Source: a virus. Taken from it: DNA of 64,000 nt. Shown here piece by piece: positions 32,443-52,399 of this stretch. The position numbers and the translations under genes were made by a program. How positions within the stretch are numbered: position 1 is the stretch's first letter; each line of letters begins with the position of its first letter. The notes under the pieces were generated by a model. The model was not told the DNA's origin. It worked only from the letters and a program-made list of their open reading frames with translations, and searched no databases. The stretch spans positions 5 through 64,004 of IMG/VR virus record IMGVR_UViG_3300032265_002475; one strand, given 5' to 3'.

Positions 32443-32789
32443 TATTTATTTAATAAACTTGCTATTTGACTTAAATCTAATTCTCCTGGAGGTAAAGCTG
32501 AACCTTCAGCTGCTGTATTTACAGCAGTAGGTCTAAATGTTCCACTATTAAATGACATTGTATCTCCTTTTAAAGAAGCATCCATACCACCTAAAATATC
32601 CATATATGCTTTTCTTTTATCCATATATGTTATTTCAGATTCAGGTTCTGGTTTAGGGGCATTTATATAATTTTCAGAAATTTGTTTTTTAGAACCTTTA
32701 ATACTTTCTAATAAAATTTCTTTTAATTCTTCTTGAATTGCCTCTTTTACAGCTGCTTTAATAAATTTTTTAAATTCTATTGCTTTCAT
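32442..32789 (-). CDS. hypothetical protein (MK leader variant)
   Basis: MKAIEFKKFIKAAVKEAIQEELKEIL. Confidence 0.5.
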   Translation of the reverse strand: MKAIEFKKFIKAAVKEAIQEELKEILLESIKGSKKQISENYINAPKPEPESEITYMDKRKAYMDILGGMDASLKGDTMSFNSGTFRPTAVNTAAEGSALPPGELDLSQIASLLNK

Positions 32790-35331: not shown

Positions 35332-36075
35332 CTAAAATTTAATAACACCTTTATCTAAATAATAAGAATAACTGTTTTTAAATATATCTTTTAAAGAATT
35401 AGAAATTTTAGTTATTTTAATAGTTTTAACATCTATTATTTCTCTTATATAAATATATAATGCTTTTTTATTAAAAACATCTATATTTTCACGTTTACGA
35501 AATAATTCTAAAATAGCATCAGCAATTTTAGCGTCACTTTTATTTGGAAATAATTCATAAATATTTTCTGAGCAGTGTTTTACATATAATTCTATAAAAT
35601 TAGATAATTTATCAGGATTATTATCTTTATCTAATTCATATGAATAATTAATATCTTCATATAAAGGTTCTATTTCTGTTCTATTTTGCTGAATTTTATA
35701 ATTTTTATCATTATTAAGAATTAACCAACGTTTAACTATAGTTCCAAAATATGAATATGCTTTTGCTCCTTTTGATGCATCAAATAAATGAATTTTACTT
35801 AAAAGAAAAATAATAATTTCATGTTGTAAATCTTTTATATTATCTGTTTCTGTATAATAAAACTTATATGTATGGATAATATTTTCAGTTAATTTGAAAA
35901 AAGCATAATGTATTTTATCTTGATAAATTTTACTTTTTATTTTTTCATCTTGAGTACTATTATATAATACTATTGCATCATCTGTTTCTTGTGTAAAATA
36001 CACATTAGATTTTTTCTTTCTCGGCATTTGTTTCAATTTTGAATTGATTAATAATAGTTTGAATTTCTTTAACAT
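35332..36075 (-). CDS. sigma-70-family (ECF-like) sigma factor, phage-encoded
   Basis: FDASKGAKAYSYFGTIVKRWLI resembles region 2.3/2.4; alternative start at 36027 (MPRKKK) reduces overlap with upstream gene. Confidence 0.45.
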   Translation of the reverse strand: MLKKFKLLLINSKLKQMPRKKKSNVYFTQETDDAIVLYNSTQDEKIKSKIYQDKIHYAFFKLTENIIHTYKFYYTETDNIKDLQHEIIIFLLSKIHLFDASKGAKAYSYFGTIVKRWLILNNDKNYKIQQNRTEIEPLYEDINYSYELDKDNNPDKLSNFIELYVKHCSENIYELFPNKSDAKIADAILELFRKRENIDVFNKKALYIYIREIIDVKTIKITKISNSLKDIFKNSYSYYLDKGVIKF

Positions 36076-38792: not shown

Positions 38793-39212
38793 CTATTCAT
38801 CATCTGGAAATAACTTATGAGGTATTTTCTTATTAAACTTCATTATTTTTTTAACTTCCTTAGGCTCGTCTATAACATAATATAAAGCTTCTTTACTTTC
38901 TTCCATTGCTTTTGTAGTACGATGATTACCATCTATTAAAAGTAACTCAGATAAATCTGTTTCTGGATTTTTAAAGGCAACAACTATACCAATAGGCTTA
39001 GAATAATCCATTTTAAGATTTTTAATCTTTTCAGGATCTACACTAGTAAATAATGAACTTGTTAAACGTATTTTACTTGGATTTAATTTATAGATTTTAT
39101 ATTTTATACCATCTGATTTAATTAAATCGTATGCTTTATCTACGTCAAAAATATAACGACCATGGTAAGCTTTAAAAATTTCTTCTTTAAGTATATTTAT
39201 TAATTTTATCAT
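38793..39212 (-). CDS. MIKL-leader protein with ParB/Srx-like nuclease domain
   Basis: MIKLINILKEEI; LLIDGNHRTTKA resembles the ParB DGHHR motif. Confidence 0.5.
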   Translation of the reverse strand: MIKLINILKEEIFKAYHGRYIFDVDKAYDLIKSDGIKYKIYKLNPSKIRLTSSLFTSVDPEKIKNLKMDYSKPIGIVVAFKNPETDLSELLLIDGNHRTTKAMEESKEALYYVIDEPKEVKKIMKFNKKIPHKLFPDDE

Positions 39213-40210
39213 TTGATTAATTCAGTTTTATCTTTATCATAATATAATTTTTTTAGCTTAAGACATTTAGAAATGTCTAAACTAATTAATTGATTACGTT
39301 CACAATTTAAACGTTCTAAATTAGGACATTTTGAAATGTCTAAAGTAGTTAATTGGTTATTAGCACAATATAATGTTTCTAAATTAGGACAATTAGAAAC
39401 ATCTAAAGTAGTTAATTGATTAGAATAACAGTATAATTCTTCTAAATTAGGTAAACGACCCAATCTAAGAGTAGTTAATTTATTACCACAACACCATATT
39501 TTTTCTACTCTAGGGTCATTAACTACTAAAGTTTTTAAATTTTTATCACTACAATATAATTTATTATTTTCATCTAACTTAAATTTAATTCTTTCACCAT
39601 CTACCGTAATACCGTAAATTGATTGATTAGTGGAAATAGGTTCCAATTCAGTTAATATAGTTTCTTTAATTAATTGGATTTTATCTTTATCGTAATTTAA
39701 ATATTCTAAATTAGAACAGTTTGAAACGTCTAAACTAGTTAATTGGTTATTAGCACACTTTAATATTTGTAAATTAGGACATTTAGAAATGTCTAAACTA
39801 GTTAATTTATTAGAATAACAGTCTAAATAATATAAATTGGGTAATATACCTAATTTTAGAGTAGTTAACTGATTTCTCCAACAAGATAATTTTACTAAAT
39901 TAGGCAAATTACCTAATTTTAGAGTAGTTAATTGATTATTTTCACAATTTAAAGCTTCTAAATTAGGCAAATTACCTAATTTTAGAGTAGTTAATTGATT
40001 TCCAAAGCAATTTATTTTTGTTACTCGTAAGTCATTAACTACTAGAGTTTTTAAATTTTTAAACTCACATTCTAAATTATTATATTTATTTAATTTAAAT
40101 TTAATCTTTTCACCATCTACCGTAATACCGTAAATTTGACTAGACAAGGCATATTCATACTCAGCTAAAATTTGTTCTCTAATAAGTTGTTTTAGTTCGT
40201 GTTTTTTCAT
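39209..40210 (-). CDS. MKK-leader leucine-rich-repeat protein (two fused leader-LRR cassettes)
   Basis: MKKHELKQLIREQIL; repeats NQLTTLKLGNLPNL.L.C..N; internal second leader IKETILTELEPISTNQSIYGITVDG. Confidence 0.7.
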   Translation of the reverse strand: MKKHELKQLIREQILAEYEYALSSQIYGITVDGEKIKFKLNKYNNLECEFKNLKTLVVNDLRVTKINCFGNQLTTLKLGNLPNLEALNCENNQLTTLKLGNLPNLVKLSCWRNQLTTLKLGILPNLYYLDCYSNKLTSLDISKCPNLQILKCANNQLTSLDVSNCSNLEYLNYDKDKIQLIKETILTELEPISTNQSIYGITVDGERIKFKLDENNKLYCSDKNLKTLVVNDPRVEKIWCCGNKLTTLRLGRLPNLEELYCYSNQLTTLDVSNCPNLETLYCANNQLTTLDISKCPNLERLNCERNQLISLDISKCLKLKKLYYDKDKTELIK

Positions 40211-40605
40211 TTTAAAGTAATTCGTCTATAAATATGAGGAGTGAATTTATCTGCCAATGCCCTGGCTTCCACTTCATAAAGATTGTCTTTATATCCATAT
40301 ATATTAGTTAGTTGATCATAATGCTTGTCTTTAGACAAATGTGTAAACTGCATAAAATGAACATACTCATGTATAGTAAATTTTACTAATTCTTTTTTAG
40401 TGTTAATACGCTTAGGATAAAGCGTTATTTTAGACGCTCTATACGCTAATCTTCGCCAGTCTGCGTAATGGGTATCAATACTGTAATTAATATAAAGCTT
40501 GGGTAAATTTGCGCGATAAAGTGGAAATCCTAAATAATGAGGGCACCAGTTTAAAATTTGCTTGGCTAGCTGTTTAAATTGGTGTTTATTTAAACCACGT
40601 ATCAT
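40207..40605 (-). CDS. SprT-like HExxH zinc-metallopeptidase-like protein
   Basis: TIHEYVHFMQFTH. Confidence 0.45.
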   Translation of the reverse strand: MIRGLNKHQFKQLAKQILNWCPHYLGFPLYRANLPKLYINYSIDTHYADWRRLAYRASKITLYPKRINTKKELVKFTIHEYVHFMQFTHLSKDKHYDQLTNIYGYKDNLYEVEARALADKFTPHIYRRITLK

Positions 40606-41042
40606 TTTATAAAACCTTTCTTTTGTAGTTCTTCTCTGTCTAATTTAAATGCAATATAGCCATTATTTATTCTAAAGTTATGCATTGTAAATTTGCTTTT
40701 ATATATGTTTATTAATATTTGAGCTGCAAAATCAAAATCTGCTTTTTTAACTAAACCACGTAAATCTTGTTTTATAAATTGAGGAATGTCTTTTGGTTTT
40801 AATTTTGCTAAAGTATTATTATATTCATCAGAATGTATTGATGTAAAATCTAATGGAATATCAAAATAAAAATATTTACTATCATAATCTATAGGAAATG
40901 CATCTGCATCTTTACTATTACCATACCACCAACCTTTTCCACTTATGTAATTTATACTCCATGGTCTTTTAGCACCAGAAACTGGTTCTAATTCTGTCAG
41001 AATTTGTTCTTTTATAAGCTGTTTTAATTCGGATTGTTTCAT
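40602..41042 (-). CDS. MKK-leader protein, unknown cargo
   Basis: MKQSELKQLIKEQILTELEPVSG. Confidence 0.55.
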   Translation of the reverse strand: MKQSELKQLIKEQILTELEPVSGAKRPWSINYISGKGWWYGNSKDADAFPIDYDSKYFYFDIPLDFTSIHSDEYNNTLAKLKPKDIPQFIKQDLRGLVKKADFDFAAQILINIYKSKFTMHNFRINNGYIAFKLDREELQKKGFIK

Positions 41043-41626
41043 TAGTAAAATGCTTGATATATTGTTTGACCTCTATAATTTAATTTATTAATTTCAAATC
41101 TATATACTGTACTATCAATTGGATTAACACTTAAATACAATCTGTCATCTTCATTATCATCTAACATTATTTCATCACCTATATTATAATTTGTACCTAT
41201 ATATAATTCTGATTTAGTCCAACCCTTTCTTACATAATTCCAGTTTGGGTCATTTGTATGTGGTCCTATAGCTTGTAAAGATAAATTAATTAAATCTTGT
41301 TTAACTTTAGGATCTCTTTCCATAAGTTTTGCAAGAGCAGCATTATTAGGAATACGCATAGCAGCAACAGGTTCTAATTCAATTAGAGGCTCACCTAGTG
41401 GTAAACGATTAGTTTTATTTATTATGTGAGCAGTTAATTTTTTATAAAACGCAGGATCTGTTTGTTTTTTATCTTTTACAGCAGTGTATAAGTGTTTATT
41501 ATGTTTTAATTTAGTTAAATTTGGATATAAAGTAACAAGATTTAACATTTCATCATTAGTAAATGTTCTTTGAACTTCAGCTAGAATTTGTTCTTTTATA
41601 ATTTGTTTTAATTCGTGTTTTTTCAT
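41042..41626 (-). CDS. MKK-leader protein, unknown cargo
   Basis: MKKHELKQIIKEQILAEVQ. Confidence 0.55.
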   Translation of the reverse strand: MKKHELKQIIKEQILAEVQRTFTNDEMLNLVTLYPNLTKLKHNKHLYTAVKDKKQTDPAFYKKLTAHIINKTNRLPLGEPLIELEPVAAMRIPNNAALAKLMERDPKVKQDLINLSLQAIGPHTNDPNWNYVRKGWTKSELYIGTNYNIGDEIMLDDNEDDRLYLSVNPIDSTVYRFEINKLNYRGQTIYQAFY

Positions 41627-42165
41627 CTGATTAGTTGAGTTTTGTCTTTATCGTAAGTTAAAAGATTTAAATTAGGACATTTAGAAATATCTAAAGTAGT
41701 TAATTGATTATTAGCACAATTTAAAGATAATAATTTAGGACATTTAGAAATGTCTAAAGTAGTTAATTGGTTATTAGCACACTTTAATATTTGTAAATTA
41801 GGACATTTTAAACTAGTTAAACTAGTTAATTGATTACTATCACAATTTAAATATTCTAATTTAGGTAATATACCTAATTTTAGAGTAGTTAACTGATTTC
41901 CAAAGCAATCTATTTTTGTTACTCGTGGATCATTAACTACTAGAGTTTTTAAATTTCCAGCCCGTTCAGGTAATTCATCTTCAGGATCATCTTCATCTTC
42001 ATACCACCACTCATCAAATGAGCAAAGTAATACACCATCTTTATCTAACTCTAATTTAATCTTTTCACCATCTACAGTAATACCGTAAATTTGTTTAGGT
42101 GTAGTAGCTTCTAACTCAGCCAAAATGGTTTCTTTTATAAGTTGTTTTAATTCGTGTTTTTTCAT
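41623..42165 (-). CDS. MKK-leader leucine-rich-repeat protein
   Basis: leader + IYGITVDGEKIKLEL + NQLTTLDISKCPxL repeats + YDKDKTQLIR end. Confidence 0.7.
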   Translation of the reverse strand: MKKHELKQLIKETILAELEATTPKQIYGITVDGEKIKLELDKDGVLLCSFDEWWYEDEDDPEDELPERAGNLKTLVVNDPRVTKIDCFGNQLTTLKLGILPKLEYLNCDSNQLTSLTSLKCPNLQILKCANNQLTTLDISKCPKLLSLNCANNQLTTLDISKCPNLNLLTYDKDKTQLIR

Positions 42166-42776
42166 CTGATTAATTGGGTTTTATCTTTATCATAATCTAA
42201 TTTTTGTAAATTAGGACATTTAGAAACATCTAGAGTAGTTAATTGATTATCATTGCACCATAATTGTTCTAAATTAGGACAATTAGAAACATCTAAATTA
42301 GTTAGATTATTACCATTACAATATAACCAAATTAAATTAGGACATTTAGAGACGTCTAAACTAGTTAAATTATTATCAATACAAGTTAAATAGTTTAAAC
42401 TAGAACATTTAGAGACGTTTAAACTAGTTAAATTATTATAACTACAATATAAATGTTCTAACTTAGGGCACCCAGAAACGTTTAAATTAGTTAAATTGTT
42501 ATTCATACAATTTAAATATCTTAAATTAGGTAAACGACCCAATTTAAGAGTAGTTAATTGCTTATTATCCAACTCAATTGTTTTTACCCTTGGATCATTT
42601 ATTATTAAAGTAATTAAATTGTTATGAGAATACTCTAATATACCACTTTTACTTAATTTTAATTTAACTTTTTTATCATCAACCGTAATACCGTAAATTT
42701 GTTGATTAACAGCAACAGGTTCTAACTCAGCTAGAATTTGCTCTTTGATAAGCTGTTTTAATTCGGATTTTTTCAT
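42162..42776 (-). CDS. MKK-leader leucine-rich-repeat protein
   Basis: leader + NNLTSLNVSKCSSL-type repeats. Confidence 0.7.
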   Translation of the reverse strand: MKKSELKQLIKEQILAELEPVAVNQQIYGITVDDKKVKLKLSKSGILEYSHNNLITLIINDPRVKTIELDNKQLTTLKLGRLPNLRYLNCMNNNLTNLNVSGCPKLEHLYCSYNNLTSLNVSKCSSLNYLTCIDNNLTSLDVSKCPNLIWLYCNGNNLTNLDVSNCPNLEQLWCNDNQLTTLDVSKCPNLQKLDYDKDKTQLIR

Positions 42777-43159
42777 TATTTTATATTATGGAACATTAAA
42801 AATAGAATATCATCATCATGCGTGTAATAATATAATGAATATGCTTTAGGAAAATTACCCCAATCAGTACCTACACCTTCATGAATACTCATAGTATAAA
42901 TTTGATTAGTATTTTCTAATTTAAAAAATAATTTAGCAGCTTCTAATTGTCTTTTATCCCAATTCATTTCATCACCATATTCTTTTTGAGCTTTATACCA
43001 CTCTTCAAAATTACCCCAACCTACTAAACCTGATAATGAGATTTTATCATTAAATATCATGCCAAGCATTTCCTTAGGACTTACTGGAGAATTAGAAGTG
43101 TATTCGTATTCTAATAAAACTTCTTCTTTTATAATTTGTTTTAATTCTGATTTTTTCAT
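42776..43159 (-). CDS. MKK-leader protein, unknown cargo
   Basis: MKKSELKQIIKEEVLLEYEY. Confidence 0.55.
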   Translation of the reverse strand: MKKSELKQIIKEEVLLEYEYTSNSPVSPKEMLGMIFNDKISLSGLVGWGNFEEWYKAQKEYGDEMNWDKRQLEAAKLFFKLENTNQIYTMSIHEGVGTDWGNFPKAYSLYYYTHDDDILFLMFHNIK

Positions 43160-43160
43160 T

Positions 43161-44510
43161 TTATATTATTTCTATTCCTAAATTTTCAAGAGCTTTTTCT
43201 AAATCATTAACATAGGAATTACCTAGTCTTTCTATCTGTTTTACATATGGTCCTTCACCATCCATAGCTTTTAGTATATCGTATCCATTTGCTATATTTA
43301 ATCCATATACTTTAAGAGCTAATTGTAGTAAAAATAACCATTCTTCTGTACCTGTTTCTATTTCACCATCTTCTATAATTTCTGGATATTCTTCTCTAAT
43401 CGCTTGTTCTATTTGGTGAGATTTATCTCTATTAGAAATTGGTTGTAATTCTGTCAAAGGTTTACTAAATTTTTGTTTTTTATAATCTGAAATTATACTT
43501 ATAATTTTATTAATAAGAAGTTCTACATTAATCCCTACAGAATGTTCATCTCCAGGATTTTTAGGATTTTCTCTCCTATCTATATCTAAAAATTCATTAA
43601 AATCATCTCCTGGTACTCCTGGCTTACCTTTTAATTCATTATCAAAAATAGGATCATAAAGGCAATCTACTAAATCATCATCCCAATGATGATCAAATTC
43701 GGTCCAATTATAATTAGGTCTATCTTCCTCAGGATCACCTAATAAATCTGCATTTTCGTCAATTATGTAAAAATACTTTTCATTAGGTATTCTTTTTAAA
43801 AGCATTTTAAAACTATTACGAGGAACTGCTTGTAACTCAGCTAAAATTTGTTCTTTGATGAGTTGGGTTTTATCTTTGTTATAAATAATACTTTTTGGTT
43901 CTAAATTAGGACATTTAGAAACGTCTAAACTAGTTAACTGATTATTAACACAATTTAACCAAACTAATTTAGGACATTTTGAAAGATCTAAACTAGTTAA
44001 TTGATTATTTTTACAATTTAATGTTTTTAAATTAGGGCATTTTGAAATGTCTAAACTAGTTAATTTATTAACTTGACAATCTAAAAGTGTTAAATTAGGA
44101 CATTTTGAAATATTTAAACTCTTTAATTGATTATTAGCACAATTTAACTCTTTTAAATTAGGACATTTAGAAACGTCTAAACTAGTTAACTGATTATCAT
44201 GACACCATAAATATTCTAAATTAGGTAGACTACCTAGTTTAAGAGTAGTTAATTGGTTGTGATAACAATATATTCCTTTTACTTGTGGATTATTTACTAT
44301 TAAAGTTTTTAACTCTCCAACCCATTCAGATAATTTATCTTCATCCTGATATAAATCATATGTGTAATTTAATATACCATCTTCATCTAACTCTAATTTA
44401 ATCTTTTCACCATTTACAGTAATACCGTAAATTTGTTTATTAACAGCAACAGGTTCTAACTCAGCTAAAATTTGTTCTTTTATAAGTTGTTTTAACTCAG
44501 ATTGTTTCAT
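43161..44510 (-). CDS. MKK-leader LRR protein fused in frame to a second leader plus C-terminal domain homologous to 44516-44866 and 48165-48404
   Basis: ...IIYNKDKTQLIKEQILAELQAVPRNSFKMLLKRIPNEKYFYIIDENADL... then YPEIIEDGEIETGTEEW. Confidence 0.65.
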   Translation of the reverse strand: MKQSELKQLIKEQILAELEPVAVNKQIYGITVNGEKIKLELDEDGILNYTYDLYQDEDKLSEWVGELKTLIVNNPQVKGIYCYHNQLTTLKLGSLPNLEYLWCHDNQLTSLDVSKCPNLKELNCANNQLKSLNISKCPNLTLLDCQVNKLTSLDISKCPNLKTLNCKNNQLTSLDLSKCPKLVWLNCVNNQLTSLDVSKCPNLEPKSIIYNKDKTQLIKEQILAELQAVPRNSFKMLLKRIPNEKYFYIIDENADLLGDPEEDRPNYNWTEFDHHWDDDLVDCLYDPIFDNELKGKPGVPGDDFNEFLDIDRRENPKNPGDEHSVGINVELLINKIISIISDYKKQKFSKPLTELQPISNRDKSHQIEQAIREEYPEIIEDGEIETGTEEWLFLLQLALKVYGLNIANGYDILKAMDGEGPYVKQIERLGNSYVNDLEKALENLGIEII

Positions 44511-44515
44511 TTAAT

Positions 44516-44866
44516 TTATTTTTTATAATCTGAAATTATTTGTTTAATTTTATTAACAAGAAGCATTTCATTTTTTCCAGTACCTTTTTTTGTAGGATTT
44601 TCTATTCTATCCATTTCTTGGAACTCTTGATAATCATCTCCTAGTACCCCAGGCTTGCCTTTTAATTCATTGTTAAAAATAGGATCATAAAAGTAATCTA
44701 CTAAATCACTATCATCTAAATCTAAATCTGCATTTTCGTCAATTATGTAAAAATACTTTTCATTAGGTATTCTTTTTAAAAGTGCTTCAAAACTATCATT
44801 AGAAATTGGCTGTAATTCGGCCAAAATAGTTTCTTTTATAAGTTGTTTTAATTCGTGTTTTTTCAT
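44516..44866 (-). CDS. MKK-leader protein (start corrected to internal ATG 44864-44866)
   Basis: listed ORF has a spurious 46-codon 5' extension; MKKHELKQLIKETILAELQPISNDSFEALLKRIPNEKYFYIIDENADL. Confidence 0.55.
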   Translation of the reverse strand: MKKHELKQLIKETILAELQPISNDSFEALLKRIPNEKYFYIIDENADLDLDDSDLVDYFYDPIFNNELKGKPGVLGDDYQEFQEMDRIENPTKKGTGKNEMLLVNKIKQIISDYKK

Positions 44867-44869
44867 TTT

Positions 44870-45245
44870 TATTTTTGTTTTATTATAAATATGTATATAG
44901 TTTGTTCGATATGAAAAGAGTTGTAAAAAGAAGATTTTTGATTTTATGAAAGAGAGCGCAAAATGGGTAAAGCGGAATTGCGCATTTGTGTTATGGACGT
45001 GCAACGTTAGGTGTTATATAAGTATATAGGCCATCGATGTGAGGAGATGTGGGAGGGCTGAAAATACATCACATTCACACCCATGTACAGCCCAGATATG
45101 TATGGAAAACGACGCATATGGGATTCTACATATACGTACCGCGTATTATTATTCCTTCGTATATCGTACATAGTACATACGGAATAAAAAGCAGAAAAAA
45201 AGAGAACATTTCTGTTCCCTTTAATTCTGTTTTTTCATCTTAAAT
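44870..45245. other. GC-richer noncoding island between early and cassette regions (candidate regulatory region / origin / ncRNA)
   Basis: no credible ORF; gcgcaa...ttgcgc inverted repeat, GTAC-rich repeats, ggagatgtgggaggg G-tract. Confidence 0.4.
45186..45220 (-). terminator. rho-independent terminator after the AT-hook gene
   Basis: minus strand GGGAACAGAAATGTTCTC hairpin followed by TTTTTTTCTGCTTTTT. Confidence 0.5.
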
Positions 45246-45246
45246 T

Positions 45247-45669
45247 TTAAGCTACATTTTCAGATGTAACAGTTTGTGTTGTAACAACTTCAGGTGCTGG
45301 TTTTGTCATTTTTGGTCTACCTCTTTTAGGTACATACCCATTTGCAATTTTAGCTGCATATTCAGCTTCTCTAAGTTGTTTTTTACTTCCGGGTACAATT
45401 GGTCTACCTAATCTAAATGTACCGCTTGCTTTTCTTTCTGTACGTGCAGCTTCTCTAATTTGTCTTGCACTTCCTGGTACAATTGGTCTACCTAATTGTT
45501 TTTGAGGTGTTGCAACTGTATTACCTACTGTTACTTCACTTACATTTACTACTGTTGTTTCAGGTACAGTTACTTCAGGTGTAATTGTTTCAGGTGTAGT
45601 TACTTCAGGGTTAACTACTTCATTTGTGTTAACTAATGCTTTGTTTGTTTTTTGTTTTTTGTTTGACAT
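45247..45669 (-). CDS. AT-hook DNA-binding protein with internal LGRPIVPGS repeats
   Basis: KRGRPKM AT-hook; two LGRPIVPGSxxQxREA repeats. Confidence 0.45.
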   Translation of the reverse strand: MSNKKQKTNKALVNTNEVVNPEVTTPETITPEVTVPETTVVNVSEVTVGNTVATPQKQLGRPIVPGSARQIREAARTERKASGTFRLGRPIVPGSKKQLREAEYAAKIANGYVPKRGRPKMTKPAPEVVTTQTVTSENVA

Positions 45670-45715
45670 GATGTTTTGTTTTTGTTTGTTAATTTATTTT
45701 GTTATTTATTTATTT

Positions 45716-45756
45716 TAATGACATAAAGATAAGTTAAAATTTATGAATGGCCAAAC
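45716..45756 (-). promoter_or_regulatory. early promoter element (family A/B)
   Basis: ttaatgacataaagata...gccaaa. Confidence 0.55.
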
Positions 45757-45794
45757 TATACTTTTATTTATTATTTTATTGTTATTATTACTTA

Positions 45795-45835
45795 TTAATG
45801 ACATAAAGATAATTATGAATAAATGAATAGCCAAA
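45795..45835 (-). promoter_or_regulatory. early promoter element (tandem second copy)
   Basis: ttaatgacataaagataattatgaataaatgaatagccaaa. Confidence 0.5.
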
Positions 45836-45840
45836 CCATT

Positions 45841-46125
45841 TTAATCTTCTTTAGCTGTTTCTAAAGCGGCTGTATATGCACCTTTATTTATATTATCCAT
45901 TCCCATCCCTTCATATTTTAACAATGCATTACAAATATATTTATGGATTCCATTAATGTTTTTTATTTCTGCAATTGCTTTAACAATACTATTTTTGTCA
46001 GTATCATTAATGTTTTTATCATTAACAAAATCCGTAATGTATTTTTTTGCTACATTTACATCCTTCATTTTAAATACCCCATTACTGATCTGTTCAAAGA
46101 TTGATTTTAAATACTTTTGTTTCAT
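45841..46125 (-). CDS. small hypothetical protein
   Basis: ORF behind promoter element. Confidence 0.5.
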   Translation of the reverse strand: MKQKYLKSIFEQISNGVFKMKDVNVAKKYITDFVNDKNINDTDKNSIVKAIAEIKNINGIHKYICNALLKYEGMGMDNINKGAYTAALETAKED

Positions 46126-46150
46126 TTTTTATGTTGTTATTTTTAATAAT

Positions 46151-46191
46151 TTAATGACATAAAGATAATTATGAAATTATGAATTGCCAAA
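46151..46191 (-). promoter_or_regulatory. early promoter element
   Basis: motif. Confidence 0.55.
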
Positions 46192-46197
46192 CTTACT

Positions 46198-46350
46198 TTA
46201 CCACCTTAAAACAGCATTTGGATTGTTAGTGTTATGTTTATGAAATCTTGCACATTTACCTTTATGTGTGGTAGTACATGAGGCAAATATAATAATGCAA
46301 AAACAAATACCAATAATAATAATTAAAGCGTTTAAATAATTTTGTTTCAT
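46198..46350 (-). CDS. small putative lipoprotein (50 aa), not in ORF track
   Basis: ATG 46348-46350; MKQNYLNALIIIIGICFCIIIFASC signal with lipobox-like FASC; own promoter element upstream. Confidence 0.35.
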   Translation of the reverse strand: MKQNYLNALIIIIGICFCIIIFASCTTTHKGKCARFHKHNTNNPNAVLRW

Positions 46351-46361
46351 TTTTTAATAAT

Positions 46362-46407
46362 TTAATGACATAAAGATAAAAATGAATAGCTGAATAGCCA
46401 AGCCAAA
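46362..46407 (-). promoter_or_regulatory. early promoter element
   Basis: motif. Confidence 0.5.
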
Positions 46408-46434
46408 CAAAAATGGGGAGCTTTTAACTCCCCA
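46404..46434 (-). terminator. rho-independent terminator after gene 46450-46860
   Basis: minus strand GGGGAG-TTAAAAG-CTCCCC then ATTTTTGTTTGG. Confidence 0.6.
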
Positions 46435-46449
46435 CACCATGTAACATAA

Positions 46450-46860
46450 CTAACCAATCATTTCATTTACAATCTTATCTAACATTTCACTAACATTACC
46501 GTCCGTTTCTATAGTGGCCATAATTATTTTGGTCTGAGCGTCCTGATATGATACATTATTTACATGTACTTGTATGTCAGGTGCAGTATCACTTGCTTGA
46601 GTATTCCACCAAATATTACAATTGTAACCATTTTGTTTTAATTTAAAACTCAATGTTTCTCTTAATATGTTTAATTCTGAATTGATTTTATTACTACGTT
46701 GATTTATTTTTTTCAATTCATCAATTAACTTTTTAGCTTTGTTTGTTTCATTTTGTTTAGCAATAAATACTTTAGATGCAGTTGATGCTTTCACATTAGC
46801 ACGTCTCATCACTTCTTGACTTAATACATTTAACTGTAGATTACTTAATTTTTTAGCCAT
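46450..46860 (-). CDS. hypothetical protein
   Basis: ORF. Confidence 0.5.
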   Translation of the reverse strand: MAKKLSNLQLNVLSQEVMRRANVKASTASKVFIAKQNETNKAKKLIDELKKINQRSNKINSELNILRETLSFKLKQNGYNCNIWWNTQASDTAPDIQVHVNNVSYQDAQTKIIMATIETDGNVSEMLDKIVNEMIG

Positions 46861-46881
46861 GTTTATTATTGTTTTTGTTTT

Positions 46882-46922
46882 TTAATGCCATAAAGATAAG
46901 GCTGAATTTATGAAATGCCAAA
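46882..46922 (-). promoter_or_regulatory. early promoter element
   Basis: ttaatgccataaagataaggctgaatttatgaaatgccaaa. Confidence 0.5.
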
Positions 46923-47073
46923 TCTGCTTTTTAATCTGTTTTTTAAATCCCGTTATTTAATCTGTTTTTTAGGTGTGGTTTACTGTGGTTTTGCTTGCGC
47001 TGAATTTTGGCTGCCTTAACCTAAACACATTGATTAATGCCTGAGTGGATTAGATGATTTTTGGCGCGTTTAC

Positions 47074-47265
47074 TTACCAATTTTCATCCTGTGCTTCATC
47101 GTCTGGTGATTCGAGGGCAAACTCATCAGGCACATCCTCAAATGAATCAATTAATGTTTCAATGTAATCAGCAGGATCAGGTGCTTCATAAGCTTCAATA
47201 ATAATTTCAGCTAATTGCTCTTGAGTATAGTTAAGTAAGTTTTGTTTAATAATGTTTATATTCAT
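47074..47265 (-). CDS. small highly acidic protein
   Basis: 63 aa; Asp/Glu-rich C-terminal half. Confidence 0.45.
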   Translation of the reverse strand: MNINIIKQNLLNYTQEQLAEIIIEAYEAPDPADYIETLIDSFEDVPDEFALESPDDEAQDENW

Positions 47266-47483
47266 TATAATGTTTGTTTTAATAATGGTTTAAATTGGTT
47301 TACTATTTGTTCTGATGTGTTTTTTGCTTTACGAACCATATCTTCAAAACAATATGAACCCGTTTCGGCAAATGTGGTTTTTATAGTATCGTTCCACAAC
47401 GAGTTAGAAAATTTTAATTTATTGTCTATTGAAGTTAGATCCCTTACTAATTGTTCTTTTGCTAATGTTGATTTACGTTTCAT
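47265..47483 (-). CDS. small hypothetical protein
   Basis: ORF. Confidence 0.45.
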   Translation of the reverse strand: MKRKSTLAKEQLVRDLTSIDNKLKFSNSLWNDTIKTTFAETGSYCFEDMVRKAKNTSEQIVNQFKPLLKQTL

Positions 47484-47502
47484 CTGTTTTTTAATTTTGT
47501 TA

Positions 47503-47543
47503 TTAATGCCATAAAGATAAAATATTTTTTGTGAAAAACCAAA
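47503..47543 (-). promoter_or_regulatory. early promoter element
   Basis: motif. Confidence 0.5.
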
Positions 47544-47544
47544 T

Positions 47545-47750
47545 TTTCCTAAGAAGGTATATATTTATTATATGAGGACTGGACGTGTCCGTGCTGAATG
47601 TATATGCGATCCCGCCCCTCCTACTCCACCCACTCATTTACTGTTTTCCACATACACTTTATCTTACTTTTAATTTATTACCTCCCACTCCCAATGTGTA
47701 TATAGCTCGCTACATATTTCCAACTATTACATTTATTTTATTTTGTATTT
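47545..47750. other. C-rich (plus) / G-tract-rich (minus) noncoding island
   Basis: cccgcccctcctactccacccactc ... cctcccactccc in a ~30% GC genome; no ORF. Confidence 0.4.
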
Positions 47751-48154
47751 TATGAATTACGTGCCTTTAAAGATAGTTCATATAATTTATCTAACGTTTC
47801 ATGTGTGAATGTTTGGCACCCTACCGTAATATTATCTTTGGTGATTGTTGCTTTGTAATTGCTATTTAACGTGAGTTCTTTTTTAAATTGTTCTTTACCT
47901 TTACCTTTCATATATTGGGTAAATTCTTCTAATGTTATCCATCTATATTTAGATTCTTCTTTAGATATAGAACTCATTTGTGTTATTATATCACCATCCC
48001 AACAGTAATATGGAAATTGAGGATCTATAAGTTTATTTATCATTCCTCCATAAATAGATACTTCACAGTCAATAGCGAGTTTTAGTAATTCTTTTACTTC
48101 TGTGATTGATAATTCATGGTTAATTGCTACTTTGTCTTGAAAGTTATGTGTCAT
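47750..48154 (-). CDS. hypothetical protein
   Basis: ORF. Confidence 0.5.
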   Translation of the reverse strand: MTHNFQDKVAINHELSITEVKELLKLAIDCEVSIYGGMINKLIDPQFPYYCWDGDIITQMSSISKEESKYRWITLEEFTQYMKGKGKEQFKKELTLNSNYKATITKDNITVGCQTFTHETLDKLYELSLKARNS

Positions 48155-48164
48155 TATTTTTTGT

Positions 48165-48404
48165 TTATAATGTTTCTATTGCTAATTCTCCAAGTACAGA
48201 CATTAATTCAATGTGTGCATCATCACTTAATAGTTTAGTTCCATTAAATAGGTCTTGATATGTCACAGTTACTCCATGTATTTTATTTGCTTCTATAACT
48301 AAATCAAACCATTGTTCTGTACCCATTTCAACTTCACCGTCATGAACTAATTCAGGATAATGTTTTACAATTACGTTTTTGATTTTTTGTTGTGTGTTTG
48401 CCAT
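48165..48404 (-). CDS. small protein homologous to the C-terminal domain of 43161-44510
   Basis: KHYPELVHDGEVEMGTEQWFDL vs EEYPEIIEDGEIETGTEEWLFL. Confidence 0.5.
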   Translation of the reverse strand: MANTQQKIKNVIVKHYPELVHDGEVEMGTEQWFDLVIEANKIHGVTVTYQDLFNGTKLLSDDAHIELMSVLGELAIETL

Positions 48405-48419
48405 TGTTATTTTATTTAT

Positions 48420-48460
48420 TTAATGACATAAAGATAAGGTGGAAAAAATGAATAGCCAAA
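48420..48460 (-). promoter_or_regulatory. early promoter element (identical subfamily ggtggaaaaaatgaatagccaaa)
   Basis: motif. Confidence 0.55.
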
Positions 48461-48793
48461 TTAATTTTCATTATTTAATTCAAATTGTACACGTTCATTA
48501 AATAATGATTGCACATCTTCAAACGGTTGTGTCATCATTAATTGACGTAACATTTGTTCCTCCATATTCATTTCTTTAAGTAAATGTTGTGTTTTTTCAC
48601 CTGTTATTTCAGGATTAGATGATCTACACCATTCAGCATATAATAATTCAGCTTTATCATGTGGGGTTATGCCTTTTAATTCTAAATAATCATCATATTT
48701 TAGATTATGATTAATTACATTTCCTAATTCTACCAATATTAATTTTTTAACATTAGGTTCATTTAATAATTTTTTTAATGTTATATTTTTCAT
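48461..48793 (-). CDS. hypothetical protein
   Basis: ORF. Confidence 0.5.
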   Translation of the reverse strand: MKNITLKKLLNEPNVKKLILVELGNVINHNLKYDDYLELKGITPHDKAELLYAEWCRSSNPEITGEKTQHLLKEMNMEEQMLRQLMMTQPFEDVQSLFNERVQFELNNEN

Positions 48794-48796
48794 TTT

Positions 48797-49126
48797 TTAG
48801 TTATTATTTGATGTTGTTTCTTCAGTTACGTTTTCGTCAAGTACTTCTTCAATAATTGATTCAATTTTACTCAAATCTATCGAAACATCACTAAGTACTA
48901 TTGTATTATCACGTTCTAAATCAAAACTAGCTGAATCCATATCAACTACATCATCACTATCTAATTGGTTTAGTCTATTACTAATAACATAACGTATCTC
49001 ATCCGCTAATTCTTGTGTAATGCAGCTTTCACGTTTTACTTCATTAAGTAATTTTATGATATCATCTTTAGTGAAAATTGAACTTGGTGAGTCTTGTACT
49101 GTTTGTTTTAATTCTTGTAATTTCAT
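48797..49126 (-). CDS. acidic hypothetical protein
   Basis: ORF; Asp/Glu-rich. Confidence 0.5.
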   Translation of the reverse strand: MKLQELKQTVQDSPSSIFTKDDIIKLLNEVKRESCITQELADEIRYVISNRLNQLDSDDVVDMDSASFDLERDNTIVLSDVSIDLSKIESIIEEVLDENVTEETTSNNN

Positions 49127-49147
49127 AACTTTTATTATTTTTATTAT

Positions 49148-49188
49148 TTAATGACATAAAGATAAGGTGGAAAAAATGAATAGCCAAA
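49148..49188 (-). promoter_or_regulatory. early promoter element
   Basis: motif. Confidence 0.55.
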
Positions 49189-49226
49189 TTTATTTTAAAT
49201 TCCAAATTTTTCATTTTGTTACTTAT

Positions 49227-50048
49227 TTAGTTGTTTTTAACAATGTTGTTTATGATATCCATTGTTTCCCACGAAGTAGCAGTGTTAAAGTTAATTTCTA
49301 ATCTACCTAAAGAACCATCAGGATACACTTTCCACTTCGATGATATTCCATTTGCCATTTTGATTTTAACTGCATCGATTTCGTAACCTTGTTTTTCATA
49401 TGGTTCTTTTCTCCACTCTTTTATAGCTACTACCTCTGCTCCTGGATAAAGTGCTTGCATCTTAGCTACGGTAGCTTCAACTACACTAACTTGCTTTTTA
49501 GTTGCGTTTGTTTGAGCTTCGCGTTCATCACGCACCTCTTTTATTTTCTTGTTAATAGTGTCAGCTTTTGTTATAGCTTTATTTTCATATTTATAATCCA
49601 ATCCAAGTCCTGTTAAATACATTTTCCAGCCATTGTTAGTTCCTCTTGTATCCCATTTAGAATTATATACTACCTGAACCTTCACTCTTACGGTAAAACC
49701 ACCATTTACAATGGAAGCTTCTTTTTTGGTATGTGTTTCGCGATGAGCTACTTTATAAGCTCCATTTTCATCTTTGTTACCATAATCAAACACCACTTTT
49801 TCAAATTGATTTTCTCCGATATTCAACTGCCATCCTTTACCTAACTGTTTATGATATTCTGTAGCTGCTGCTATTTGCTCATCTTGAGTTTTGATAATTT
49901 TAGCAATTTCAGCCTTACAATCTACAATACCTCTTTCGATTTGTGCTTTGTTTTTGGCTTGCTTTTCAGCTTGTGCTAAAGCTTCTTTTTCACGGTTAAT
50001 TTTAATGATTTCTAATTCTGCTGGTGTTAATTCTAAAACTTGTGTCAT
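49227..50048 (-). CDS. hypothetical protein (273 aa)
   Basis: ORF. Confidence 0.55.
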   Translation of the reverse strand: MTQVLELTPAELEIIKINREKEALAQAEKQAKNKAQIERGIVDCKAEIAKIIKTQDEQIAAATEYHKQLGKGWQLNIGENQFEKVVFDYGNKDENGAYKVAHRETHTKKEASIVNGGFTVRVKVQVVYNSKWDTRGTNNGWKMYLTGLGLDYKYENKAITKADTINKKIKEVRDEREAQTNATKKQVSVVEATVAKMQALYPGAEVVAIKEWRKEPYEKQGYEIDAVKIKMANGISSKWKVYPDGSLGRLEINFNTATSWETMDIINNIVKNN

Positions 50049-50064
50049 AACTTTTATTATTTTA

Positions 50065-50102
50065 TTAACATAAAGATAAGGTGGAAAAAATGAATAGCCA
50101 AA
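50065..50102 (-). promoter_or_regulatory. early promoter element
   Basis: motif. Confidence 0.55.
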
Positions 50103-50231
50103 TTTTATCTAAATTCCAAATTCGATTACTAAATATAAAACACACGCTACAAAAGCTAGTGCTACTATTACTAATCCTGTGTCAATTGGTGCCCAATATT
50201 GTTTCATTGTATTTTATGTTAATTAAAATAG

Positions 50232-50294
50232 TAGGCAAAGTGAGAATTGAACTCACATTATCGCAATATCACACAAGTAAGGTGCTATTTACCC
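50232..50294 (-). ncRNA. short tRNA-like element (acceptor + T-arm, lacks a canonical D-arm)
   Basis: rc GGGTAAA..GTGAG-TTCAATT-CTCAC-TTTGCCT-A: T-arm plus 7-bp acceptor with two G-U pairs; only 63 nt. Confidence 0.2.
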
Positions 50295-50492
50295 GACCGT
50301 ATAAAAAACTACATCTGCCTTCTAAATGGGATACCTTGTCTCAAAAGTGTTATCCAGTACATTAACCCAAACCACTCAAATTTTAGAACTTTGAGAACAA
50401 TAGCCCCACCTCATCACAAAGGGTACTGAATAATGTTATTACTATTATTTGTTCAGTGTTAATCAGATGTAGTTTTAAAGAACGTTTTTGTG

Positions 50493-50582
50493 AAGTTGGT
50501 GGGAGATTTGAACTCCCATCTCTCATCATACAATGAGGCGTTACTCAATTGTGGTATTCATTCCCACTTACGCCAACCAACT
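50493..50582 (-). tRNA. tRNA-like gene, ~89 nt, non-canonical core; anticodon not resolvable by eye
   Basis: rc AGTTGGT-TG-...-GGGAG-TTCAAAT-CTCCC-ACCAACT-T: perfect 7-bp acceptor and canonical T-arm; D region has A14 A15 G18 G19; candidate anticodon stem CTCAT/ATGAG encloses only 6 nt. Confidence 0.4.
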
Positions 50583-50605
50583 TACCATTTTTCATAGGTG
50601 AATGA

Positions 50606-51310
50606 TTATTTCAACTTATTTAATATTTTAATTATAGTTGCTTCATCCACTGTCCATTTATGGGCACTGTCTTCTGCTTTAGCTCCACATCCAACCCAAA
50701 CTGCAGCTTTGTCATTTTGAGCTATTACTAACGCAGCTTCCCAAAATTCTTTAGTAAACTTATATCCGGAAATGGTAGTTTTATTTTTTTCAAATTCAAC
50801 TTCATAACCTCCTATTCTAATAGTTTCTTCTTTTTCATAGGCAGGTTCAAACCAAATGTCTAAAACACCCATACTTTTAGCTTCATCAATTGCACCGTCT
50901 TGATCCATAGTGAAAAATAAATTATCATGACCTCCAACATTAAATAAAGTATCAGCCCAACTAATATGACCACGTTTTAATGCAATTTTACCTTTTTCTG
51001 TTAATTTATAACCAACTAATTTTTTATTCATGTTATTATTGTTTGTTTTTGGAGTTGGATTACTCATTTTTAAAAACTCATTCCAAGTAATTCTACACTC
51101 TTTTGAAAAACAATCAAAACTAGCTACAGTTCCGTTATAATTCCAACTTCCTGTTGATTCATCAAAACTGATGTATAATCGGGTTGGGTTGTTAATTTCG
51201 AAATAAGAAAGATGATTTTCATCTACTGTTTCACCTGATATAGTGCTAATATAATTTAACACTCGTTTAAAGTTTTTTGCGTTAGTTACGCATACATTCC
51301 ATTTATTCAT
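50606..51310 (-). CDS. hypothetical protein (234 aa)
   Basis: ORF. Confidence 0.5.
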   Translation of the reverse strand: MNKWNVCVTNAKNFKRVLNYISTISGETVDENHLSYFEINNPTRLYISFDESTGSWNYNGTVASFDCFSKECRITWNEFLKMSNPTPKTNNNNMNKKLVGYKLTEKGKIALKRGHISWADTLFNVGGHDNLFFTMDQDGAIDEAKSMGVLDIWFEPAYEKEETIRIGGYEVEFEKNKTTISGYKFTKEFWEAALVIAQNDKAAVWVGCGAKAEDSAHKWTVDEATIIKILNKLK

Positions 51311-51833: not shown

Positions 51834-51841
51834 TTTATTAT

Positions 51842-51882
51842 TTAATGACATAAAGATAAAAAAGAAAACCTGAAAAGCCAAA
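51842..51882 (-). promoter_or_regulatory. early promoter element
   Basis: motif. Confidence 0.55.
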
Positions 51883-52305: not shown

Positions 52306-52322
52306 GTTGTTATTTTATTTTA

Positions 52323-52360: not shown

Positions 52361-52399
52361 TTTATTTTAAGGCCAAATTACAATTTCATAAACCATTAG

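Follow-up and report, generated by a model that had tools for sequence, protein, structure and literature searches.

The Array and Its Genes

The window, a 64,000-nucleotide stretch of the viral record IMGVR_UViG_3300032265_002475, holds at positions 38793-44866 ten consecutive minus-strand genes, eight of which open with the leader MKK[HS]ELKQ[LI]IKEQILAE (ATGs at 44866, 44510, 43159, 42776, 42165, 41626, 41042 and 40210). The initial annotation had counted nine consecutive leader genes; eight of ten is the corrected figure, since the HExxH gene within the array has no leader and the last gene (38793-39212) has the shorter MIKLINILKEE, while the further copy it had placed at 20087-20446 was confirmed. 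Cassette 1 (44516-44866, 116 aa) couples the leader MKKHELKQLIKETILAELQPI to a cargo domain B, which recurs in cassette 2 and in the sister-phage gene L171_7338; the TTG at 45004 given as its start in the ORF listing is an over-extension, the real start being the ATG at 44866. Cassette 2 (43161-44510, 449 aa) is a fused three-module protein, in which the leader is followed by a leucine-rich repeat (LRR) domain (LRR_4, E 5.9e-25), a full internal leader copy (43824-43874), domain B, the half-leader LTELQPI (43437-43457) and domain C; B-C shares 79% identity with L171_7338-8057, a leader-tagged gene that stands alone in the sister phage. Cassette 3 (42776-43159, 127 aa) carries behind its leader MKKSELKQIIKEEVLLEYEY a cargo that matches no family, and has an ortholog in the sister phage (L171_8540, 43% identity). 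Cassettes 4 (42162-42776, 204 aa; LRR_4 6.5e-17) and 5 (41623-42165, 180 aa; LRR_4 1.1e-13) each pair the leader with an LRR domain, that of cassette 4 being a Cys-ladder with a 21-aa period, both Internalin-J-like and SlrP/SspH2-like. Cassette 6 (41042-41626, 194 aa) consists of leader, module Y, the half-leader LIELEPV (41366-41386) and module Z; module Y sits fused behind an LRR in L171_8914, as does Y-Z in P0020. Cassette 7 (40602-41042, 146 aa) joins the leader to module X, which matches the fused sister protein L171_8914-10011 (LRR-Y-X) at residues 228-362 with 76% identity. In cassette 8 (39209-40210, 333 aa; LRR_4 1.7e-31) two LRR domains flank a full internal leader copy (39635-39685), and in the population variant L180 (93.7% nucleotide identity) the second of these stands alone as a gene headed by a full leader.

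Five LRR domains are thus distributed over four genes, with LRR_4 scores of 51-108 bits against a Pfam cut-off of 27, and the "at least five" LRR genes of the initial annotation become four. Its Cys-containing repeats stand; their period, put at 22 residues, is 63 nt (repeat family D1), that is, 21 residues with a conserved Cys.

Two minus-strand genes of the locus depart from this plan. The 132 aa HExxH protein (40207-40605) is a leaderless anchor of the array conserved in all three sister lineages, its HEYVH being invariant in five homologs, and these homologs comprise just four clusters in 5.8 billion proteins, all from sister phages. It had been called SprT-like, which we do not retain: sequence searches of Pfam, NCBIfam and PDB gave no family match, the AlphaFold model (pLDDT 43) is unusable, and what is seen is the invariant HExxH. 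The constancy of this gene might suggest that its product removes the leader, so that tagging and processing would form a closed system of their own, apart from the head. We regard this as highly improbable given the narrow distribution of the homologs and the presence of the leader on hundreds of contigs that lack the HExxH gene. Moreover, glutamate-specific cleavage after (I/L)-x-E, to which the leader motifs described below would correspond, is typical of S77 proteases, and to our knowledge it is not a habit of small zincins.

The last gene of the locus (38793-39212, 139 aa) encodes the short leader variant MIKLINILKEE followed by a domain with an invariant DGNHR motif. Its AlphaFold model (pLDDT 81) leaves residues 1-9 disordered, with the short leader outside the fold, and the 26 best PDB matches of a Foldseek search without exception belong to Srx, ParB-N, SbnI or Noc (probability up to 1.0, TM 0.45-0.64). 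The earlier "ParB-like" label therefore holds at the level of the fold, where the model supports a ParB/sulfiredoxin fold with a DGxHR-type motif, and not at that of sequence families, as Pfam (ParBc profile included) and NCBIfam returned no match. Orthologs of the L174 lineage start with MKLSQIKQLIKEEL, a leader-type N-terminus.

Away from the array, a solitary minus-strand leader gene at 20087-20446 (119 aa; MKKSQLKQIIREQILNELEPV plus cargo) is flanked by tail-fibre-region genes and a homing-endonuclease-like gene, and a divergent one at 5371-5625 (minus strand, 84 aa) opens with the weaker form MKQSEFKNMVKEEIRKTLK (leader HMM 10.5 bits) and has the 9-mer ATATTTATA 12 nt upstream.

A Late-Promoter-Like Motif

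The same ATATTTATA lies on the minus strand at 44884-44892, 17 nt ahead of the ATG that opens the array (44866), and again at 40227-40235, inside the 3' end of the HExxH gene and 16 nt before the ATG at 40210. In the window this late-promoter-like 9-mer precedes baseplate, lysis and head-proximal genes, at 3-32 nt from their ATGs, and is absent from the coding strand of the early region; the genes above 45247 have Bacteroidetes-type early promoters. In Flavobacterium phage immuto the coding strand holds 16 copies and the other strand one, and the motif precedes the genes for TerL, sheath, tube, hub and tail spike.

Conservation of the Leader

At the DNA level the leader is a direct repeat (family D2) of nine copies, 61-83% identical over 76 nt, in line with the nucleotide-level repeat noted initially. 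A degenerate leader pattern gave seven matches where shuffled sequences predicted 0.00. The abrupt divergence behind the leader is equally evident, as nine leader positions have a mean pairwise amino acid identity of 1.0 and the value drops to about 0.1 past codon 21. Invariant in the nine leaders of the window are M1, K2, L6, K7, Q8, I10, E12, L15 and E17, so that I10-K-E12 and L15-A-E17 form two invariant (I/L)-x-E motifs, the consensus at which gp21 cleaves. Such a motif carries little information in a sequence rich in K, E, L and I, a point that we count against capsid targeting. The leader is covered by no family in Pfam, PHROG or NCBIfam and is in this respect not the N-terminal helix of a single well-known family, the outcome named initially as a refutation.

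Comparison of the window with L171, L180 and P0020 shows cassettes fusing and splitting exactly at the leader. Together with the nine-copy repeat, and with the resemblance of the LRR C-terminal tail KTQLI[KR] to leader LKQLIK, which offers microhomology for in-frame joins, this invites a reading in which the leader serves recombination alone, or is left over from duplication: cassettes would multiply and swap through unequal recombination between the 60-76 nt repeats, and the encoded peptide would have no targeting role. The recombination handle suggested by the initial annotation is in this sense directly visible between sister phages, but the peptide is conserved as protein: it persists, with synonymous codon variation at invariant positions, between phages that share no more than 25-60% identity in their core proteins, and it starts at residue 1 in 45 of the 51 top hits among 1.84 billion representatives and in 238 of 244 cases in metagenome loci. 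Nor does a mere handle explain that the half-leader junctions of fused cassettes keep the distal half of the leader alone. These half-leaders, which occur at each of the domain junctions in fused cassettes, co-vary with the leader by lineage, ILAELEPV occurring with LIELEPV or LTELQPI, ILAEVEAV with LNEVEAV, and ILKEIRVQPP with LNEIKVEPP, LYEIKVEPP or LKEIKVET. We therefore judge recombination as the sole role of the leader to be quite unlikely; a recombination-handle role is compatible with capsid targeting and not exclusive of it. The half-leaders at the junctions could themselves be recombination scars, which is counted against capsid targeting.

Distribution among Related Phages

Of the window ORFs, 27 match immuto collinearly at 31-78% identity, the baseplate wedge at 46.6% (E 3e-165), and by this gene content the contig is from a relative of immuto, an Immutovirus-like myophage with a T4-type head. 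The 64-kb contig has no protease, scaffold or capsid gene of its own, the head genes of the phage lying outside it, which we count against capsid targeting. Immuto encodes a gp20-like portal, a gp23-like capsid protein and a Peptidase_S77 protease, and a gp21-family protease and a gp22-like scaffold are present in immuto and leader-bearing relatives (PF03420 8.9e-35, 3.3e-29 and 3.9e-19).

The leader was found on over 130 related contigs, where its arrays reach ten genes at most. We surveyed 134 leader loci, 14 from IMG/VR and 120 from metagenomes; homologs of immuto-, Mel-JY01- or window-type genes accompany the leader in 14 of 14 and 83 of 120, respectively. Among the distinct metagenome leader proteins, 222 of 225 have [ILVM]10-x-E12, and 184 of 225 have a second [ILVM]-x-E within residues 13-24, a motif outside the search pattern used to collect them and seen, by comparison, in 16% of 12-residue cargo windows. 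The 217 cargos of the wider leader set make up 175 families. Aquatic phages commonly carry the tag, and a scan of 596 Gb of cellular genomes gave two leader hits, both in MAGs.

Head genes occur in 29 of the 134 loci against 11.8 expected (P about 5e-6): leader genes or arrays directly follow the protease in L054, L093, L116, L118, L157 and L163, lie upstream of scaffold and capsid genes in L002, L125 and L168, and follow the capsid gene in L161. Counted against capsid targeting are the 105 of 134 loci without a head gene within the DNA covered, and the several loci that adjoin thyA or replication genes. That most leader loci do not adjoin head genes also speaks for a second reading, in which the leader would act as a docking or oligomerisation helix in another machine (phage GroEL/ES, a tail or baseplate assembly factor, or self-association) with no head targeting. 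Immuto-type phages do encode GroES and GroEL, and a conserved baseplate-module protein (32442-32789) has the loosely similar N-terminus MKAIEFKKFIKAAVKEAIQEELKE; yet such a helix leaves unexplained the two conserved (I/L)-x-E motifs, the half-leaders at the junctions and the enrichment beside protease, scaffold and capsid genes, and we consider it unlikely. The hydrophobic moment of the leader, 0.10, is below the shuffle mean, so that by this measure it forms no amphipathic helix, a result also counted against capsid targeting.

Some relatives have a hydrophobic segment directly after the leader (L171_8085, L057, L096, L105), as if the leader routed its proteins to the membrane of the host or out of the cell, where they would act unpackaged as host-takeover or surface proteins. 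This reading appears very improbable to us, as the leader is highly charged, has neither hydrophobic core nor signal-peptidase site, and shows the low hydrophobic moment just given; the late promoter class also counts against it, and ejection proteins with transmembrane segments exist, for instance SPN3US gp47 (PMC5694885).

Proposed Role of the Leader

On a narrow balance of probability we favor a reading in which the leader acts as a capsid-targeting propeptide, in the manner of the capsid-targeting sequence (CTS) of T4 internal proteins, and marks a variable repertoire of packaged proteins. The clade with its T4-type head and S77 protease, the two (I/L)-x-E motifs, the late motif shared with structural genes, the enrichment of leader genes in head modules of relatives, the half-leaders at fused-cassette junctions, the virtual absence of the tag from cellular genomes, the disorder of the short leader outside the ParB/Srx-like fold and a gene architecture like that of T4 ipII and ipIII all argue for it. 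The capsid-targeting, protease-cut leader put forward initially is partly supported, each indirect test applied having come out in its favor, and is still unproven. In such a scheme the new protein would dock onto the prohead scaffolding core through the N-terminal half (MKKSELKQ[LI]IKE), and the distal half, (I/L)-x-E and then L-E-P-V in the window phage, would provide the cut site or sites of the gp21-family (Peptidase_S77) prohead protease; the cut would release the cargo within the head, for delivery along with the DNA. The array would then encode an enlarged, quickly reshuffled set of head proteins, internal or ejected ones, late-expressed with the structural genes; the fused cassettes would be small polyproteins whose modules are parted at half-leader junctions, and the LRR cargos protein-binding modules directed at host factors. 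The tag and its conservation as protein, the motifs, the clade with its protease, the promoter class, the distribution, the enrichment in head modules and the fusions and fissions are observed; docking, cleavage, packaging, ejection and any host target of the cassette proteins are what we infer. Cys-rich LRR solenoids of 180-450 aa are an unusual cargo for tail ejection, which we count against the capsid-targeting reading.

The tag may be a previously undescribed one of an abundant aquatic clade with T4-type heads. That this clade uses its own tag to load its heads with large, fast-changing sets of unrelated effectors, some as polyproteins cut by the prohead protease at half-tags, and in the sub-lineage of the window injects Cys-ladder LRR binders against host defence proteins, is conceivable, if on balance somewhat doubtful. 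If the tag is capsid-targeting, M-K-K-S-E-L-K-Q-[LI]-I-K-E at residue 1 becomes a rule for finding packaged, probably injected proteins in hundreds of uncultured aquatic phage genomes, where nearly all such genes are now "hypothetical". Phages of Bacteroidetes-type hosts would join the T-even and phiKZ-like phages, from which most of the evidence for the T4 internal-protein paradigm has come to date, and would add a polyprotein version of it; the LRR binders would be a new class of candidate injected anti-defence proteins; and foreign proteins could be brought into the capsids of this clade by means of the tag, as with the T4 CTS. As immuto, whose leader proteins are gp072, gp080, gp094 and gp095, is in culture, the packaging prediction is directly testable.

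Comparison with Known Systems

The LRR cargos resemble the Cys-ladder of internalin J and the LRRs of the type III effectors IpaH, SspH and SlrP in their 21-residue Cys repeat, and their best NCBIfam matches are InlJ (8.6e-33), SlrP and SspH2, although at 113 versus 1700 bits they stay far under the family cut-offs. LRRs of the internalin J and IpaH type are domains by which bacteria bind host proteins. The window proteins have no LPXTG anchor, NEL ligase or secretion signal and have the repeat type alone in common with them. We know of no LRR cargo among T-even internal proteins.

Large, variable families of head-internal proteins, with propeptides conserved among diverged paralogs, are present in phiKZ, 201phi2-1 and SPN3US; these propeptides have multiple post-Glu cleavage sites for a gp21-like protease, and some of the ejection proteins have transmembrane segments (PMC5694885). 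The window likewise has a large, variable set of proteins with a conserved candidate propeptide. Unlike the window leader, the propeptides of these phages mostly exceed 100 residues and have the cleavage motif S/A/G-x-E, and their cargos are homologous paralogs where those of the window are unrelated modules.

Closer in size are the propeptides of T4 gp24, gp21, gp67 and gp68, N-terminal stretches of 10-20 residues ending in L-x-E (gp24 MAKINELLRE, gp21 MNEPQLLIE). The second motif family of the window, MIKLTNLLRE or MIKLINILKEE, resembles the gp24 propeptide, and leader genes of relatives lie between portal and protease or just after the protease, like T4 genes 67 and 68; this is a likeness at the level of pattern alone.

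The nearest parallel is offered by T4 IPI, IPII and IPIII with their CTS (PMC3012670, PMC9026906, PMC5694885), where a short N-terminal tag likewise heads otherwise unrelated small proteins from adjacent genes. T4 ipII and ipIII have MKTYQEFIAE in common on unrelated bodies and adjoin the lysozyme gene, and both this tag and the window tag, MKKSELKQLIKE...LAE, end in (I/L)-x-E. A T4-type head with gp21-family protease (in the clade), cargo that is hypervariable among related phages, and genes beside a lysis gene are further common traits. The window tag differs in being longer (17-21 aa) with two candidate sites, in forming arrays of 8-10 genes versus 2-3 in T4, and in its multi-module fusions with internal half-tags. 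In Pfam and PHROG searches neither tag nor cargo showed homology to the CTS or the internal proteins of T4, and the two tags have only M-K...I-x-E in common. By analogy, then, the window proteins are ones that work like the CTS-bearing internal proteins of T4, rather than members of that group.

Array and Leader in the Window

The array at 38793–44866 and its shared N-terminal leader are a real, non-trivial feature of the window, which has a G+C content of 26.6% and bears every real gene on its minus strand. Ten genes, tightly packed and with many ATGA stop/start overlaps, make up the array, and eight of these (ATGs at 44866, 44510, 43159, 42776, 42165, 41626, 41042 and 40210, minus strand) begin with the leader MKK[HS]ELKQ[LI]I[KR]E.[IV]L.E. 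As the initial annotation had it, a further gene far from the array, at 20087–20446, starts with the same pattern. Its count of nine consecutive leader genes comes down to these eight, the HExxH gene (40207–40605) being devoid of leader and the last gene (38793–39212) having the shorter MIKLINILKEE. Its claims that the leader is kept at the DNA level as a direct repeat and that identity breaks off sharply after about codon 21 both hold: the nine copies share 61–83% identity across 76 nt, and mean pairwise amino acid identity drops from 1.0 at the invariant leader positions to about 0.1 beyond codon 21. A degenerate DNA pattern of the leader gives 7 matches in the window versus none in shuffles. 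The positions invariant among the nine copies are M1, K2, L6, K7, Q8, I10, E12, L15 and E17, and since the codons of invariant residues (for example L15 and E17) differ between copies, selection acts on the peptide and not on the DNA alone. The leader was also considered as an amphipathic helix and rejected as such, its hydrophobic moment of 0.10 being below the shuffle mean.

Phage Identity

By megablast the array has no DNA-level match among INPHARED phages, tblastn with a 70-aa leader-plus-N-cap query returned nothing, and PHROGs and Pfam searches with the large ORFs of 213–34967 returned almost nothing; the phage type was assigned by tblastn, not by PHROGs or Pfam. The baseplate wedge protein shares 46.6% identity along its full length with its counterpart in Flavobacterium phage vB_FspM_immuto (160 kb; hereafter immuto) and 45.7% with the one in Microcystis phage Mel-JY01, and 27 window ORFs match immuto collinearly at immuto positions 77–116 kb. 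The immuto head module is of the T4 type: the portal is gp20-like, the capsid protein gp23-like and the scaffold acidic, and there is a "prohead core protein serine protease"; Pfam Peptidase_S77 (S77, the T4 gp21 family) is matched by this protease and by its homologs in leader-bearing relatives. The window is essentially the whole 64,004-bp contig, on which neither head genes nor a protease gene are present, and the phage's own head genes thus lie outside the available sequence. No tRNA genes were found in the window.

Modularity and Junctions

Sister phages, L171 and L174 among them, were located via the HExxH protein, with homologs that are 89% and 65% identical. The sisters share one locus order (early genes, array, HExxH gene, ParB/Srx-like gene, holin, endolysin) and differ in their cassettes, which may be fused in one and split in another. 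The leucine-rich repeat (LRR) and cargo modules Y and X are separate genes in the window and one fused 365-aa protein in L171, LRR-B-C is fused in the window and B-C is a stand-alone gene in L171, a further variant (P0020) has the architecture LRR-Y-Z, and a population variant with 93.7% nucleotide identity carries the window's double-LRR gene as two genes. The alternative, raised at the outset, that the leader is a recombination handle is clearly true as an account of how cassettes shuffle in this way; it leaves the deep peptide-level conservation of the leader unexplained.

Every internal junction in the fused proteins has the distal leader half only, and this half co-varies with the N-terminal leader, lineage by lineage. 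In the window the leader ILAELEPV is accompanied by junctions LIELEPV, LTELQPI, LAELQAV and LTELEPI, in L171 ILAEVEAV by LNEVEAV (twice), and in L174 ILKEIRVQPP by LNEIKVEPP, LYEIKVEPP and LKEIKVET. Such distal-only, co-varying junctions are expected if the proximal half serves targeting, for which one N-terminal copy would suffice, and the distal half is the recognition site of a lineage-specific factor, for instance the protease. The junction half-leaders could also be recombination scars.

Distribution of the Leader

The leader is widespread and phage-specific. A search of IMG/VR with degenerate DNA for ELKQ[LI]I[KR]E..IL, in which no start codon was required, returned 14 contigs, all 14 from immuto-like phages, and in 13 the match comes after M-K-[KR]-x at an ORF start. 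A similar pattern occurs on at least 120 metagenome contigs; among the matches listed, genes homologous to those of immuto, Mel-JY01 or the window are present on 83 of 120 contigs, and tandem leader arrays reach up to ten genes. A leader HMM run on the listed metagenome contigs identified 244 leader ORFs, 238 of them beginning at Met, and bacterial and archaeal genomes totalling 596 Gb contained two leader matches only, both in MAGs. Searching 1.84 billion representative proteins with a profile yielded 51 matches at E ≤0.001, 45 of which start at residue 1, in proteins 41–364 residues long; hit P0023 of this search was discarded as a false positive, being an unrelated tandem-repeat protein. 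A synthetic tandem-leader query against a 5.8-billion-protein index produced 3 candidates, none significant. The extended leader ...ILxEL[EQ][PA] has 0 matches in metagenome contigs and is therefore specific to the window's sub-lineage, and the array is absent at the syntenic position in 26 more distant relatives.

Promoters and Expression Class

Upstream of the genes from 45247 up (45247–63110, about 15 small genes) lies the Bacteroidetes-type, promoter-like motif TTTGGC...TATCTTTATG, which marks a block of early genes and suggests that the host belongs to the Bacteroidetes. The motif is highly regular, TTTGGC(T/A)(A/T)TTCA-N-TTATCTTTATG, of the Bacteroidetes −33/−7 type, and is also present in L171. 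A different element, ATATTTATA, is found at −17 of the array's first ATG, before ATG 40210 within the array, and, on the window's coding strand, 3–32 nt ahead of the ATG start codons of baseplate, lysis and head-proximal genes; no copy falls on that strand within the early region. Immuto has 16 copies on the coding strand versus 1 on the other, preceding terminase, sheath, tube, hub and tail spike genes, L174 has it before three array genes, and L171 has a one-mismatch version. As found in the window and in immuto, 3–32 nt before starts of structural and lysis genes, ATATTTATA(A/T) is a candidate for the late promoter in Immutovirus-like phages.

The stretch 44867–45246, which separates the array from the terminator of the last early gene, contains about 330 nt of G+C-richer non-coding sequence, conserved with L171 and partly with L174, that folds more stably than shuffles (z −2.8) and matches no Rfam family. 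ORFs listed here are probably spurious; the stretch might serve in regulation where early genes give way to late ones, or be a non-coding RNA. The non-coding stretch before the L174 array (4069–4460) comprises a string of N as well as TACCACTTGTGC-like short tandem repeats. Elsewhere in the window, 35332–36075 encodes a 247-aa protein, kept in all relatives and adjoining a phosphohydrolase gene, which by eye resembles T4 gp55-type late sigma factors and has no profile match.

Cargo Proteins

Cys-containing LRRs, initially reported as 22-residue repeats in at least five genes, are present in four array genes as five domains with a period of 63 nt, or 21 residues. Their best matches are internalin J and SlrP/SspH2 repeats, at scores far under the family cut-offs, and for the 204-aa LRR protein no identical sequence is on record. 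No LRRs occur in the metagenome leader proteins among the matches listed, and LRR cargo is hence a speciality of the window's sub-lineage. An immuto-like IMG/VR contig (L001, 780–3570 and 7298–7936) has five tandem paralogs with BspA-like LRRs (MKLKYEKVG...TSVTIPN), a type differing from the window's; they have no leader and adjoin a single leader gene. Cargos at large are diverse: among the matches listed, 217 sequences (median 105 aa) fall into 175 families, 151 of them singletons. A DUF7935 match (E 0.038), aligned at non-terminal positions of the profile, was put down to chance.

The designation "SprT-like" for the HExxH protein found no support, with Pfam, NCBIfam and PDB sequence searches empty and an AlphaFold pLDDT of 43. 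"ParB-like", for the last gene of the array locus, stands at the level of the fold: with a model of pLDDT 81, each of the 26 best PDB hits in Foldseek is a sulfiredoxin, ParB-N, SbnI or Noc structure, and the DGNHR motif does not vary. Its short leader (residues 1–9) is disordered in the model.

Candidate Cleavage Motifs and Head-Gene Context

The leader contains two invariant hydrophobic-x-Glu triplets, I10-K-E12 and L15-A-E17, both of which fit (L/I)-x-E, the consensus after which T4 gp21 cuts; examples in the T4 genome are MKTYQEFIAE (ipII, ipIII), MAKINELLRE (gp24) and MNEPQLLIE (gp21). Window peptides with candidate cleavage sites are MKKSELKQLIKEQILAELEPVAV and, at junctions, PLIELEPVAAM and PLTELQPISN. 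In the wider family, among the matches listed, [ILVM]10-x-E12 is found in 222 of 225 leaders, and a second [ILVM]-x-E within residues 13–24, which lay outside the search pattern, in 184 of 225, versus 16% of equal-length cargo windows.

Leader genes are enriched at head modules and not confined to them. They directly follow an S77 protease gene on six contigs; eight flank the protease gene in L155, seven form an array upstream of scaffold and capsid genes in L168, three lie upstream of scaffold and capsid genes in L002, and three come after the capsid gene in L161. Among the matches listed, 29 of 134 leader loci have a head-module gene versus 11.8 expected (rough binomial P ~5e-6, the loci not being fully independent).

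A second shared N-terminus, MIKL[TI][ND][LI]L[KR]E, is carried by unrelated proteins of 126–628 aa (ATGs at 12668, 11760, 11131, 9820, 7539 and 39212, minus strand). T4 gp24 has a similar propeptide, MAKINELLRE. Two genes of this kind are present in Mel-JY01, and the window region concerned corresponds in immuto to the stretch that immediately precedes the head module; the MIKL-type proteins may be further prohead-protease substrates. From the same region come acidic proteins with recurring N-terminal motifs NF[DN]LK.FL.EN and F.RMQ[KE]LAG[IL] (window 15526–15894, 2618–3214 and 213–2600; immuto gp076 and gp077). A baseplate-module protein at 32442–32789, with orthologs across relatives, has the loosely leader-like N-terminus MKAIEFKKFIKAAVKEAIQEELKEILLE.

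Interpretation and Comparison with Known Systems

From these sequence features we lean toward the leader being, as the best-supported model, a T4-like capsid-targeting propeptide on variable, late-expressed proteins that would be packaged and probably ejected, the fused cassettes then acting as small polyproteins. This reading has its weak points: (I/L)-x-E is low-information, the leader is not amphipathic, the protease gene is absent from the contig, and most leader loci do not lie beside head genes in the sequence examined. The array's own HExxH protein is unlikely to be the leader peptidase, because it is limited to a small sub-lineage whereas the leader occurs throughout the clade, and comparison of its homologs with the leader contigs eliminates it as a general one. 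Immuto, the leader proteins of which include gp072, gp080, gp094 and gp095, is in culture on Flavobacterium sp. LMO8, and the propeptide reading is directly testable there.

In the literature searched we found no paper on the tag and none joining capsid targeting to LRR proteins. The architecture of the window's array is the same as that of T-even internal-protein genes with their capsid targeting sequence, and the paralog families of phiKZ-like phages, which bear propeptides, are similar too. Neither the window's tag nor its cargo is homologous to those of either system, so that the tag system would be their functional analogue and not a further member. What is new is the tag itself and its wide spread in uncultured aquatic phages, together with arrays of up to ten genes, LRR cargo and putative polyprotein fusions with half-tag junctions.
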